UHGV virus genome: UHGV-0135926
Length of the DNA stretch: 17,214 bases
Source of the DNA: a virus
Reading direction: 5' to 3' (one strand)
Numbering within the stretch: position 1 is the stretch's first letter; each line of letters begins with the position of its first letter. Shown here piece by piece: positions 4,081-7,429 of this stretch. A model generated the notes under the pieces. It made no database searches, was not told where the DNA came from, and worked only from the letters and a program-made list of their open reading frames with translations. Made by a program: the position numbers and the translations under genes.

Positions 4081-4908
4081 TTAGGCTTTAAAGTTACCGA
4101 TGAAAGTTTCCACTGATTCGCCTTCGAACTTGCTGATCAGCAAATCGCGGAATTCGTTGGCGATCGCTTCTTCCTGAGCTTCAAGTTGGACAATGCGCAG
4201 AACAAAGCAGGGTTCATCGCTAGTCAGCAGGCTGTTACGCAAGCTAAAGCGGCGTTCGCCCAGGCCTTCATACGGCATACATTTGAACTCGAACGCCACA
4301 GGCATTACGTCTTTGCTGCTTGCTTCAACGCTTTGCATCAGCGATTTTTTACCAGCGAAATCACCAGTTTCATGGTCCTGCTGTGTTGCTTGCTGAATAG
4401 TGATACGACGCACAGCCTGAGCCGCCTGGGAAATCTGCATCGTATTGCCATCAGCATCAAACGCCAGCAGGTAATCGCTCCAGTCTTCCAGCCATTCAGC
4501 AATTTGCTTTTGTTTCAGACGTTGACCATCGATCTGCAGTAACGCGCGGAACGGGGCGGTTTTCTTCAGGGTGATTGAAGCAACGTTATCGGCGTGACCA
4601 GGATTATCCAGGGTGCCGATGTTGAACACTGAACGGGCGGTCATGTTGTCAGCGTCAATGAAGCAACGAGCTGGTTCACTGTCGCTGGCGTAACCTTTAG
4701 AATAACGTGCGAAGTCGTCAATACTGGTTGTGGTCATTTCGCCACGAAAGCGGAAACGTTCCAGAGAAAAGCGCTCGAGGCTTTCAACGCCAGTACCCTC
4801 TGGCAGTAATGCGGTCGGGCAAGCCAGGCCATGAATATCATTCAGGTGATAACCGGAAAGAACCAGGTCTTTGACCTGCTTGAAGGTACCGCTGTCTAAC
4901 TGAGACAT
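4081..4908 (-). CDS. yfdQ: YfdQ-family protein (DUF2303-like)
   Basis: 275 aa; ATG at 4906-4908 with AAGGA about 8 nt upstream. Sequence, size and gene order match the CPS-53 yfdP-yfdQ-yfdR arrangement as I recall it. Confidence 0.7.
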   Translation of the reverse strand: MSQLDSGTFKQVKDLVLSGYHLNDIHGLACPTALLPEGTGVESLERFSLERFRFRGEMTTTSIDDFARYSKGYASDSEPARCFIDADNMTARSVFNIGTLDNPGHADNVASITLKKTAPFRALLQIDGQRLKQKQIAEWLEDWSDYLLAFDADGNTMQISQAAQAVRRITIQQATQQDHETGDFAGKKSLMQSVEASSKDVMPVAFEFKCMPYEGLGERRFSLRNSLLTSDEPCFVLRIVQLEAQEEAIANEFRDLLISKFEGESVETFIGNFKA

Positions 4909-4964: not shown

Positions 4965-5336
4965 TCACTGAGCCGCTTTAAGCTTTCCATCCACCGCGCC
5001 AGTGATCCCGAACAGCTGACCCTGATCTTCCTGCAGGATGGTGAGCTTCCCGCCTTTGTTGACCCACATCGGGGTTTCGGTTGTGTCCTCTTCGGAGGCT
5101 TTACCACGCGGTGTTGGGGTGCTGTAGTTCAGCTTGTGCTTGATCTTGACGCGCTTCTCTTCAACGGAATTACCCATGCGCTCAAAATCAAAGGTGAGGA
5201 CTACTTTGCCTTTGTTGCCGTTGTTCAGAACGCCAAGCGCGGTGGTGTTAAGTGCTGCCGCGATTTTGTTCATGAACACGCCGGCATCCAGTTCGCCAAG
5301 AAAATCTGGCACTACGGTCATGCGGTCATTACTCAT
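4965..5336 (-). CDS. First gene of the leftward operon; YfdP-like by size and position (123 aa), function unknown
   Basis: ATG at 5334-5336 with GAGGG 7 nt upstream. Not arginine-rich, so not an N-type antiterminator. Confidence 0.6.
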   Translation of the reverse strand: MSNDRMTVVPDFLGELDAGVFMNKIAAALNTTALGVLNNGNKGKVVLTFDFERMGNSVEEKRVKIKHKLNYSTPTPRGKASEEDTTETPMWVNKGGKLTILQEDQGQLFGITGAVDGKLKAAQ

Positions 5337-5466
5337 GGTTTTACCCTCGTTAAGGCGGCTGCCACCGCCGAACTTTCTCCATACTCAACTGGAAGCGCAC
5401 TCCGCTTGTTTCACACCTGTCACCCATAACTGGTAAGTGAAGGAGTGCGCTTTCATGTTGTGATCT

Positions 5467-5517
5467 GAAAAAGGCTGGCGGTTACCGGAAATACACGGGA
5501 AAACACCGGTCCGCCAG
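5467..5517 (-). terminator. Intrinsic terminator in the pL leader (tL-like)
   Basis: Minus-strand RNA: CUGGCGG-ACCGG-(17-nt loop)-CCGGU-AA-CCGCCAG followed by CCUUUUUC. That is 12 bp of stem with a 2-nt bulge. Plus-strand coordinates 5475-5517 for the stem and 5467-5474 for the U-tract. Confidence 0.6.
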
Positions 5518-5797
5518 AACATGGAGTTACTTGTTATTGCTTTAGCCTGCTTTTAACCACATCAGGCGCGGTGGTAGGTATCTTCGGGCGGGGGCCAGTG
5601 ACTAGCTGGCATCCCTACGGTACTTTTCACCGACAACCGCGGGTTAGACGGTTCCGTTTCGTCGGATAGAGCTGTCGACGCTGGTAGTCACTCCAGCCCG
5701 TAACCCCTCCCGAAGACACCTGTCAGCGAATCATCCGGTTATTCATACGTCACCGGCGGCTACTTCGTGGGCGTCCTGCCTGTTCGCTGTTTCGTAT

Positions 5798-5831
5798 AGG
5801 TACATTATGTACCTTGAGGGTACATTGTCAA
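5798..5831 (-). promoter_or_regulatory. pL promoter with overlapping OL operator(s)
   Basis: On the minus strand: TTGACA (plus 5826-5831), 16-nt spacer, CATAAT (plus 5804-5809). A perfect 19-bp palindrome ATGTACC-ttgag-GGTACAT (5807-5825) overlaps the spacer and -10, with an extra half-site forming AGGTACAT-t-ATGTACCT (5798-5814). Confidence 0.6.
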
Positions 5832-5833
5832 GG

Positions 5834-5859
5834 ATAAAAAAACCTGCCGAAGCAGGTTT
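5834..5859 (-). terminator. Terminator of the repressor transcript
   Basis: Stem aaacctgc (5840-5847) / gcaggttt (5852-5859), loop cgaa, followed on the minus strand by a run of seven U (plus-strand A 5836-5842). Sits between the cI stop (5871) and the pL -35. Confidence 0.65.
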
Positions 5860-5870
5860 GTGATGATGGG

Positions 5871-6545
5871 TTAAGGCTTATGCCTGTGCCGTCGTGGTTT
5901 TCCTGAGAAAACAACGGTGCCAATAATCGAGCAATTACCATTGATCCTAATATATGGCTCTGGCCAGTTGGCGTTTAAAGCTTTAAGAAACTTTTCGCCA
6001 CTATCTTCTATTAATCGTTTAAACGTCGTTTCGCCAGAATCATGCATTAAAGCAATAACATCATCGCCATGAGAAGCTGCAACCTCTGGATCTACAAAAA
6101 TCATATCGCCAGGACGATACTCATCGATCATTGAATCACCAATGACGCGTAAGATATAAGTCATTGGCCCGCACGGAACGGGACAAGGATATGTTTCTAC
6201 ACTACTCAAATCTACCTCTGCATAACCAGCATCCGTCCATGCTCCGGCTTGCACCCAGGATATAACCGGGACCATCGTAATTGATCTTTTAACGTCTGAA
6301 ACGTCGGGTGATTTAGCAATGTTGGTAGTTTGATGTTCGGTATCTAGCCAACCTTGAGGCAAGTCAAAACATTTTTCGATATGCCTTGCCATAGCGTCAC
6401 CAATACCTTTGGTGGCACCTTCACCCATAAACCGGCTGGTTTGTGTAGGTTCACGATCGATCATGTTAGCGAAGTAGCTATTACCCCCAACACCATCTCT
6501 CAATTTTCGGGCGTTTAATCGCCTGATTTCCTGGATAGTTTTCAT
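5871..6545 (-). CDS. cI: CI-type repressor with C-terminal LexA-like S24 peptidase domain (SOS-cleavable)
   Basis: C-terminal half resembles P22 C2 / lambda CI (ISWVQAG…, RVIGDSM with catalytic Ser, TFKRL with catalytic Lys, …INGNCSIIGTVV). N-terminal XRE-like HTH. ATG at 6543-6545 chosen over the track's TTG at 6560 because the putative pRM places the TSS on that ATG. Confidence 0.85.
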   Translation of the reverse strand: MKTIQEIRRLNARKLRDGVGGNSYFANMIDREPTQTSRFMGEGATKGIGDAMARHIEKCFDLPQGWLDTEHQTTNIAKSPDVSDVKRSITMVPVISWVQAGAWTDAGYAEVDLSSVETYPCPVPCGPMTYILRVIGDSMIDEYRPGDMIFVDPEVAASHGDDVIALMHDSGETTFKRLIEDSGEKFLKALNANWPEPYIRINGNCSIIGTVVFSGKPRRHRHKP

Positions 6546-6551
6546 CAGCAA

Positions 6552-6630
6552 ATTAAACAATGTGTACCTCTATGGTACAAGTACCTTGTGGGTTCATTTC
6601 TTTCGTGTAATATGTACACAGGAGGTACAT
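6552..6630. promoter_or_regulatory. OR region: three 19-bp operators, pRM (leftward) and pR (rightward)
   Basis: Operators GTGTACC-tctat-GGTACAA (6562-6580), AAGTACC-ttgtg-GGTTCAT (6579-6597), ATGTACA-cagga-GGTACAT (6612-6630). pRM on minus: TTGTAC (6575-6580), 17 nt, TTTAAT (6552-6557), 6 nt, then ATG. pR on plus: TTGTGG (6586-6591), 16 nt, TAATAT (6608-6613). Confidence 0.55.
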
Positions 6631-6633
6631 ATT

Positions 6634-6834
6634 ATGAAAGAGTATTGGGACTCTTTAACTAAAGAGCAGCAAGGCGAATTAGCTGGAAGCGTAGGTTCCA
6701 CGCCTGGCTACCTGCGTTTAGTTTTCAATGGCTACAAAAAGGCAGGTTTTTCCTTGGCTAAAAAGCTGGAGGAAACAACTGCTGGGATTATCAGCAAATC
6801 TGATCTTCGTCCTGACATTTACCCTAAACAGTAG
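6634..6834 (+). CDS. cro: Cro-like / YdaS-like small HTH regulator
   Basis: 66 aa from ATG 6634 with GGAGG 8 nt upstream; the track's upstream extension lacks an RBS and overlaps the operators. Ends …LRPDIYPKQ, typical of YdaS/Cro-like proteins. Divergent from the repressor. Confidence 0.75.
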   Translation: MKEYWDSLTKEQQGELAGSVGSTPGYLRLVFNGYKKAGFSLAKKLEETTAGIISKSDLRPDIYPKQ

Positions 6835-6877
6835 CAGACGAGCTGATTTTTATAACCACAGAATTAAGGGGTTAACC

Positions 6878-7429
6878 GTGGGTAACGAACCTATTTGGAA
6901 AGTCGAACGTCAGCCAGCCTGGCTGGTGGCGGCGATAAAAAAAACGATCACCGATCTACCTGGTGGTTATGCCGAGGCGGCGGAATGGTTGGGCGTGACA
7001 GAGAACGCATTGTTTAACCGCCTTCGTGTTGACGGCGATCAGATCTTCCCGCTGGGCTGGGCAATGGTTTTACAACGTGCTGGTGGTTCAACTCATATCG
7101 CTGATGCCGTTGCGCGCCATTCTCAGGGCGTATTTGTACCGCTGGCAGATGTTGATGATCTGGATAACGCCGATATCAACCAGCGCCTGATGGAGTCCAT
7201 CGAATGGATAGGCCGTCATTCTAATTTTGTACGTAAAGCCACGGCTGATGGGGTGATTGACGCAGATGAGCGCGCTCAGATTGAGGAAAACAGCTATCAG
7301 GTTATTGCGAAGTTCCAGGAGCACGTAGCGCTTCTTTATCGAGTTTTTTGTGTCGCTGAAAAGAGTGACGCCCGCGAGTGTGCAGCTCCGGGCGCCTTGG
7401 CGAACAACTCTTCGAGTATGGAGAAATAA
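6878..7429 (+). CDS. YdaT-like protein at the CII position
   Basis: Start chosen at GTG 6878 (AGGGG 6 nt upstream); the frame has no Met before this point that does not overlap cro. Follows the YdaS-like gene as in the Rac prophage ydaS-ydaT pair. Confidence 0.55.
   Translation: MGNEPIWKVERQPAWLVAAIKKTITDLPGGYAEAAEWLGVTENALFNRLRVDGDQIFPLGWAMVLQRAGGSTHIADAVARHSQGVFVPLADVDDLDNADINQRLMESIEWIGRHSNFVRKATADGVIDADERAQIEENSYQVIAKFQEHVALLYRVFCVAEKSDARECAAPGALANNSSSMEK

Follow-up and report, generated by a model that had tools for sequence, protein, structure and literature searches.

The layout of the immunity switch of phage lambda is well established. A divergent repressor/cro gene pair flanks three palindromic 17-bp operators, which make up the right operator (OR) and lie over the back-to-back promoters for repressor maintenance (pRM) and rightward transcription (pR), and a second operator cluster is found at the leftward promoter, pL. 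The lambda cI mRNA is leaderless (PMC4681348, citing Walz et al. 1976), as is that of ymfK, the repressor gene of the e14 prophage of Escherichia coli K-12. Differential RNA sequencing (dRNA-seq) in K-12 placed the ymfK start site, RVS_(I)-1202156, on the gene start itself (1202156), leaving a leader of 0 nt (Romero et al. 2014, PMC4681348, Table S3), and ymfK is one of only five E. coli mRNAs whose leaders are less than 10 nt long (PMC4681348). In NC_000913.3, the first base of ymfK is 1202933, the equivalent of position 1202156 in U00096.2. The K-12 genes racR (Rac) and dicA (Qin) have start sites 0 to 3 nt from the start codon (PMC4681348, Table S3); they are likewise mobile-element repressors with leaderless mRNAs, but their protein families and operators are different. 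In the GenBank record of Shigella phage SfV, a 69-bp "putative operator region" is annotated, with its ends 17 nt upstream of cI and 6 nt upstream of cro. A search of one literature collection returned no paper that brings SfV, e14, operator, and repressor together. Here we describe a divergent repressor/cro locus in a 17,214-nt stretch of virus genome UHGV-0135926 (the whole stretch is called the window below), in which the SfV operator region corresponds to positions 6562 to 6630. We are confident that this locus is the immunity switch of a lambdoid prophage of the e14/SfV type, with a leaderless pRM assigned by homology to e14 and the rest of its logic read from the geometry of its sites.

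The two genes, at 5871 to 6545 on the minus strand and 6634 to 6834 on the plus strand, are separated by an 88-bp gap (6546 to 6633). The leftward gene encodes a cI-type repressor of 224 amino acids (aa) when read from the ATG at 6545 and is the orthologue of e14 ymfK and SfV cI. Residues 93 to 212 of the repressor match the Pfam family Peptidase_S24, a C-terminal autocleavage domain (E = 6e-25); among solved structures in the PDB, the closest relative is the lambda cI C-terminal domain (1f39; E = 3.6e-11), and its translation shows a lambda-like VQAG cleavage motif and a GDSM serine motif. No Pfam helix-turn-helix (HTH) family matched the N-terminal domain. The rightward gene encodes a 66-aa cro-like protein, the orthologue of e14 YmfT in the YdaS HTH family. 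This protein falls in PHROG 35 (transcriptional repressor), and its match to Pfam YdaS is weak, under the curated cutoff.

The same arrangement is found in e14, SfV, and SfIV, each of which has a leftward gene for a repressor of 224 aa followed on the other side by a rightward ymfT-like gene for a cro-like protein of 66 aa and a ymfL-like gene. Gap-free protein alignments give 83% identity between the repressor and YmfK (over 223 aa) and 86% identity between the cro-like protein and YmfT. In nucleotide sequence, the region shares about 77% identity with the corresponding immunity regions of the Shigella phages SfV and SfIV and of the Escherichia phages PhiR29 and PhiR49, and it differs from e14, SfV, and SfIV by about 23%. 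The intergenic regions of SfV, SfIV, PhiR29_1, and e14 align to that of the window without gaps from the repressor ATG through the three operators. The ymfK-ymfT-ymfL synteny is found in 447 E. coli genomes, K-12 included, when matches covering at least 80% of the query are counted, and also in SfV and SfIV. Scanning one genome per species gave 55 loci, and a scan of viral contigs gave 80 more; the pooled enterobacterial loci number 103 and contain 58 distinct sequences from -50 to +3, which are the basis of the start-codon and promoter counts given below.

The intergenic gap contains three copies of an operator motif, TGTACC-N5-GGTACA, with the extended form (a)TGTACC-N5-GGTACA(t). The OR3-like copy (6563 to 6579; TGTACC-TCTAT-GGTACA) is a perfect palindrome with 0 mismatches, the OR2-like copy (6580 to 6596; AGTACC-TTGTG-GGTTCA) has 2 mismatches, and the OR1-like copy (6613 to 6629; TGTACA-CAGGA-GGTACA) has 1. 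Counted from the presumptive pRM start at 6545, their centers lie at -26, -43, and -76, respectively. With at most 2 mismatches allowed, the motif occurs 5 times in the 17.2-kb window against 0.42 occurrences expected, and 0 of 200 shuffles reached 5. All five copies fall within the two intergenic regions that flank the repressor gene, three at OR and two at the left operator (OL). At 3 mismatches the signal merges with the background (11 occurrences versus 4.8 expected). The TGTACC/GGTACA half-sites, the three OR sites in one register, and the two OL sites with pL are shared with e14, SfV, and SfIV, whose operator spacers differ from those of the window.

An earlier note on this DNA had described three 19-bp operators spaced at 17 bp in a lambda-like tripartite OR. 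The three operators are real by the mismatch and motif counts given above, and the 19-bp size is defensible in that A/T flanks extend the symmetry of OR1 and OL1. The regular spacing holds for only one of the two intervals: with centers at 6571, 6588, and 6621, OR3 and OR2 are 17 bp apart and OR2 and OR1 are 33 bp apart. Nothing operator-like is present at 6597 to 6613, where a regular 17-bp spacing would put a fourth operator, and the 16-nt gap between OR2 and OR1 recurs in every one of the 57 distinct OR segments for which extraction in a single register was possible. The placement of the sites relative to the candidate promoters agreed with the note. OR3 overlaps the pRM -35 element (6580 to 6575) and the pRM spacer; OR2 overlaps the pR -35 element (6586 to 6591), the TTG of which lies in the OR2 spacer; and OR1 overlaps the last base of the pR -10 element, the predicted pR start (about 6620), and the cro Shine-Dalgarno (SD) sequence. 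Three related palindromes therefore overlap both of the divergent promoters, and the description of a lambda-like tripartite OR stands. OR1 is additionally nested in a 27-bp symmetry (6608 to 6634; inverted repeat I8) with perfect 10-nt arms, TAATATGTAC and GTACATATTA, which covers the pR -10 element, the predicted pR start, the cro SD sequence, and the first base of the cro ATG. An RNA transcribed from about 6620 would be unable to form this hairpin, so the symmetry is presumably a feature of the DNA.

Across the 57 distinct OR segments, the six half-sites are conserved at 0.95 to 1.00. The OR3 half-sites reach 0.99 to 1.00, and the 5-nt spacer between them is conserved at 0.55, with 36 pentamer variants. 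At OR2, GGTTCA is conserved at 1.00 and AGTnnC at 0.95; the right half-site of OR1 is invariant. Of the other two spacers, that of OR2 is partly fixed, as the TTG of the pR -35 element lies in it, and that of OR1, which holds the GGAGG of the cro SD sequence, is fixed for that reason. The combination of invariant arms and a free center at OR3 points to recognition by a protein rather than to an RNA hairpin. Conservation of the deviant GGTTCA half-site in these alignments suggests that the weakness of OR2 is itself functional. We find it scarcely credible that the palindromes are chance repeats, RNA hairpins, or terminators instead of operators. A terminator scan did flag 6579 to 6563 on the minus strand, where a 6-bp stem is followed by a T-rich tail, but the remaining copies of the motif have no T tail, and their half-sites are invariant instead of covarying while the loop, or spacer, is free to vary. 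Chance repeats would also have to account for five copies lying precisely in the two promoter regions beside the repressor gene, a number that no shuffle reached, and for the recurrence of the same arrangement in many Enterobacterales genera. We rejected the terminator-like call as a by-product of the OR3 palindrome.

On the minus strand, pRM consists of a -35 element, TTGTAC (6575 to 6580), formed by the right half-site of OR3 and the first base of OR2, a 17-bp spacer, and a -10 element, TTTAAT (6552 to 6557), which ends 6 nt (TTGCTG) before the ATG at 6545. The -35 element falls in an invariant GGTACAAG block of the alignments. The e14 promoter (TTGTAC, 17 bp, TTTAAT, TTCGTT, ATG) aligns to it without gaps and in the same register, differing in the discriminator (TTGCTG in the window versus TTCGTT in e14), and the geometry of the -35 element, the -10 element, and the ATG is the same in SfV and SfIV. 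By homology to e14 ymfK, pRM transcription would start at 6545 on the minus strand, on the A of the repressor ATG. The repressor mRNA is thus very probably leaderless, as the earlier note had proposed, and the ungapped promoter alignment, the 0-nt leader of ymfK, and the universal ATG all argue for it.

The comparative data are consistent with this assignment. The repressor start codon is ATG in 58 of the 58 distinct upstream sequences, and the -10 hexamer ends 6 nt before it in 55 of them and 7 nt before it in the other 3. The hexamer is TTTAAT in 35 sequences, TGTAAT in 9, TCTAAT in 6, TTAAAT in 6, and another sequence in 2, so that the family pattern is TnTAAT or TTAAAT. The 6 or 7 nt between the hexamer and the ATG are unconserved, and the 1-nt differences in length at three loci indicate that this stretch is noncoding. 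The absence of an SD sequence before the repressor ATG, also noted earlier, was borne out: over the 20 nt upstream of 6545, the most stable pairing with the anti-SD sequence has a free energy of +1.0 kcal/mol versus -11.4 kcal/mol for cro, and for the same 20-nt interval the relatives give values between +1.0 and -5.3 kcal/mol. A fixed distance from the -10 element to the start codon, an obligatory ATG, and no SD sequence form, at the level of sequence, the pattern expected of a leaderless promoter. Leaderless translation depends on a 5'-terminal AUG, and non-AUG codons work poorly at the 5' end. More distant homologues of the repressor (Kushneria, 44% aa identity) have an SD-like element, GAGAG or GAGAAT, with the -10 element about 18 nt upstream. 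The leaderless layout is thus a trait of the enterobacterial clade (perhaps also of Salinicola) and not of all homologues.

Several points weigh against reading the locus as a lambda-like switch with a leaderless repressor mRNA. The leaderless claim is transferred from an orthologous region in e14 with about 77% nucleotide identity, and the tables of the e14 source differ by 1 nt (1202157 in Table S2 versus 1202156 in Table S3 of PMC4681348), either value being leaderless. Both pRM and pR are poor matches to the promoter consensus, falling below the threshold of a promoter scan of 5700 to 6900, and were read by eye and from conservation; the pRM -10 element, TTTAAT, lacks the usual A at -11. 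Among the operators, the best match to the consensus is OR3, not OR1, and should affinity follow the match, the sites would fill in an order other than that of lambda. The center-to-center spacings of 17 and 33 bp, compared with 23 to 24 bp in lambda, mean that pairwise cooperativity of the lambda kind cannot simply be assumed. Finally, a TTG at 6560, 15 nt upstream of the ATG, is preceded at a distance of 6 nt by an SD-like GAGG (6567 to 6570) with an anti-SD duplex of -7.2 kcal/mol, an element that the earlier note had passed over.

This TTG (6558 to 6560, minus strand) is the start used by the open reading frame (ORF) lister, which gives a product of 229 aa. If a transcript starting further upstream were translated from it by way of the GAGG, the repressor mRNA would not be leaderless. 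The TTG is in frame with the repressor gene, no stop codon intervenes, and the equivalent codon is ATG in 18 and TTG in 14 of the 58 distinct sequences, so that a start codon of one of these two kinds is present in 32. The codon is CTG in 8 sequences, CGG in 7, and another codon in 11, however, and these 26 nonstart codons include the CTG of L067, whose repressor is identical to that of the window over all 224 residues (100% as reported by the scan), and the GGT of e14 and SfV, which lack the in-frame TTG found at -15 in the window. In-frame stops follow the equivalent codon in four sequences (L016, L023, L024, and L120), and 1-nt indels occur between the position of the TTG and the ATG. The annotations of SfV, SfIV, and e14 use the ATG, giving the same 675-nt coding sequence. 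The codon also occupies -15 to -13 relative to the pRM start, flanked by the -10 element and OR3, in a promoter whose e14 equivalent starts at the ATG; a pRM transcript would therefore lack it, which agrees with the placement of the TTG upstream of the transcription start in the earlier note. A start at the TTG is, in our view, very unlikely, and the alignments indicate that TTG 6560 is not the conserved start.

A combination of the two starts, restricted to the subclade of the window, is also improbable, though less so. Under such a scheme, pRM would give rise to the leaderless 224-aa form, and the TTG or ATG at -15 would be used with its SD sequence on longer leftward transcripts, adding 5 residues. 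The longer transcript would come from an establishment promoter under the control of the CII-like YmfL protein or from read-through, and the SD sequence would be supplied by the OR3 spacer and half-site. A CII-like gene is indeed present; on a longer transcript, ATG 6545 would have no SD sequence and the -15 codon would have one; a start codon at -15 and (A/G)AGG occur together in the near relatives of the window; and e14 has reverse-strand start sites at the ymfL/ymfM junction, at 1203046 and 1203132 of U00096.2 (start-site table of Romero et al., PMC4681348). On the other hand, the first base of the -15 codon is T, A, or C while the TG or GG that follows is kept, which resembles a constraint on the promoter rather than on a start codon; the -15 start codon is missing in e14 and SfV; no establishment promoter was identified at this locus; and the relatives are not independent samples. 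We therefore retain the single leaderless start at ATG 6545.

The e14 start sites at the ymfL/ymfM junction (positions 4821 to 4824 and 4910 of the e14 locus L004, equivalent to about 7437 and beyond in the window) run antisense to the early-right operon, in the direction of cro and the repressor gene. Around the first of these sites, the sequence GTTAAACTG(T/C)TCATGCG is kept in the window, but it overlaps coding sequence and is a candidate establishment-type promoter only.

On the plus strand, the predicted pR has a -35 element, TTGTGG (6586 to 6591), a 16-bp spacer, and a -10 element, TAATAT (6608 to 6613). The relatives have TTGnnG at the former, with the TTG conserved, and TAATAT, CATAAT, or TAGAAT at the latter. 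With a start at about 6620, the leader would be only about 14 nt long and would open with the strong cro SD sequence, AGGAGG (6620 to 6625), in which GGAGG is invariant. The cro leader is 2 nt shorter in the window than in the e14/SfV type. No forward-strand start site (pR/ymfT) is listed across this region of e14 in the K-12 start-site table of PMC4681348, which fits a repressed pR in that prophage.

The geometry of the sites suggests how the switch would operate. Repressor bound at OR1 would cover the pR start, and repressor bound at OR2 the pR -35 element, shutting off cro and the early-right operon. Repressor at OR2, centered at -43, may activate pRM as lambda cI does; from this position, lambda cI activates pRM through contact with region 4 of sigma. 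The absence of an A at -11 in the pRM -10 element fits an activator-dependent promoter. OR3, centered at -26, would shut off pRM at a high level of repressor or upon binding of Cro. RecA-stimulated self-cleavage at VQAG during SOS induction would lift repression, and the maintenance mRNA from pRM, with neither a 5' leader nor an SD sequence, would be translated by the leaderless route.

The sites and the leaderless start could also be as described and yet be wired by a logic other than that of lambda, with OR3 the strongest site, pRM repressed by its own product instead of activated from OR2, and OR1 and OR2, on one face of the helix, acting cooperatively on pR. OR3, with 0 mismatches, is the best conserved of the sites, and OR2 is the weakest match, with a GGTTCA deviation that is itself conserved. 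The abutting OR2 and OR3, 17 bp or about 1.6 helical turns apart, would face different sides of the helix, whereas the distances between OR1 and OR2 (33 bp, three turns) and between OL1 and OL2 (20 bp) are near whole turns and would make these natural cooperative pairs. Against this, affinity is poorly predicted by agreement with a consensus; the e14 lysogen, which contains repressor, has an active pRM (class I start site); and both the -10 element without an A at -11 and the OR2 center at -43 fit activation. We regard such a scheme as possible but clearly the less likely of the two, and the OR geometry may wire the switch differently from that of lambda.

In both this locus and lambda, the middle operator is centered near -42/-43 of pRM, the pRM -10 element lies 6 nt before the ATG, three palindromic 17-bp operators cover the promoters of a divergent repressor/cro pair, a second cluster is present at pL, and the S24 C-terminal domains of the repressors are related. 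The operator sequence and the N-terminal DNA-binding domain are unrelated to those of lambda, however, and OR3 is centered at -26 in the window versus about -19 in lambda. There are two OL sites in place of the three of lambda, and, unlike in lambda, the cro SD sequence lies inside OR1, with a predicted pR leader of about 14 nt.

On the far side of the repressor gene, pL (5804 to 5831, minus strand; TTGACA, 16 bp, CATAAT) agrees with the consensus at 11 of 12 positions, is conserved in e14, and was the only site to pass the promoter scan of 5700 to 6900. It drives the leftward early operon, with a predicted start near 5797. The OL1-like operator (5808 to 5824; TGTACC-TTGAG-GGTACA; 0 mismatches) lies in the pL spacer, and the OL2-like operator (5788 to 5804; TGTTTC-GTATA-GGTACA; 2 mismatches) covers the last base of the pL -10 element and the predicted pL start. 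An intrinsic terminator of the repressor gene, with an 8-bp stem followed by a T run, is found at 5840 to 5859 on the minus strand, and a terminator is annotated at the corresponding position in SfV. The flanking early-left genes differ from those of e14, SfV, and SfIV.

The pL transcript would run for about 460 nt (5336 to 5797, minus strand) before the first sizeable ORF, which begins at an ATG at 5336 and encodes 123 aa with no Pfam match. The resulting untranslated leader is GC-rich and would be unusually long. It contains a conserved element of about 65 nt, GAACAGGCAGGACGCCCACGAAGUAGCCGCCGG...CCGGAUGAUUCG (5718 to 5785, minus strand), which lies just downstream of the predicted pL start, where the leftward early transcript has its 5' end. 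The element is common to 51 phage records with unrelated cI genes, at 80 to 97% identity. Its carriers include ST64B, SfII, SfV, ZF40, mEp460, mEp237, and SPN3UB, as well as e14 of K-12, and most phage records leave it unannotated; in a few, the annotation at this place is a hypothetical protein or a repeat region. Covariation is seen in the inner stem (CCGG/CCGG, UACC/GGUA, and CUGG/CCAG), with 4 pairs changed on both sides. The element belongs to no Rfam family and occurs once in the window; a scan of the whole window against Rfam gave nothing at the gathering threshold, and a permissive scan of 5600 to 5880 gave only subthreshold matches attributable to chance.

SfV-type phages have been reported to lack N, and in phage HK022, the RNA antiterminator putL occupies the same position as this element, just downstream of pL (PMC9378689). 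A link between the element and HK022 putL was considered and dropped, as blastn found no similarity and the supplements of the put paper contain no matching sequence. The OL/pL region of HK022 (L065, 800 to 880, minus strand) contains the GTAC-containing repeats TGTACTATTGGTAC and AAGTACAT. By eye, the N-terminal domain of the HK022 repressor looks unrelated to that of the window, and the GTAC repeats may be a coincidence or a convergent use of half-sites.

The gene that follows cro (6878 to 7429, plus strand) encodes a CII-like regulator of the YmfL family. Its product matches NCBIfam phage_reg_YmfL above the curated cutoff (E = 1e-55), Pfam Phage_CP76, and PHROG 101 (CII-like activator). SfII, SfV, and SfIV are described in the SfIV paper as having no homologues of cII, cIII, or N, whereas the window encodes this CII-like protein.

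The nearest genome match to the repressor, from the scan of one genome per species, is in a prophage of a Kluyvera sp. (98% aa identity). Further loci, at 59 to 89% aa identity, are found in Pseudocitrobacter, Klebsiella, Enterobacter, Atlantibacter, Leclercia, Trabulsiella, Phytobacter, Pantoea, Rahnella, Serratia, Proteus, and other genera. The host is probably Kluyvera or a relative of it rather than Escherichia or Shigella. This enterobacterial-type repressor and operator region also appears in two nonenterobacterial assemblies, in a metagenome-assembled genome labeled Geobacteraceae (L007; 89% aa identity) and on a 4.2-kb scaffold of Martelella alba (L022; 74% aa identity); these two occurrences probably reflect contamination or misbinning rather than host range.

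The switch belongs to a known and very common type of prophage immunity and is real but ordinary. An operator region is annotated in the SfV GenBank record, and the e14 ymfK mRNA was published as leaderless in 2014 (PMC4681348). For annotation, the repressor gene of the window should be read from ATG 6545 (224 aa) and not from the TTG chosen by the ORF lister, and the three OR and two OL sites can be annotated together with pRM, pR, and pL. With its 17- and 33-bp operator spacings and a pRM -10 element that has no A at -11, the family is a reasonable, if not urgent, choice for comparing switch design with lambda. The comparative set yields a clean consensus for the operators of a prophage immunity group that is large and common and for which no footprint has been published. 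Its 103 loci, from many genera of the Enterobacterales, make the leaderless-promoter geometry of e14 ymfK a conserved trait of the family and not an oddity of K-12.

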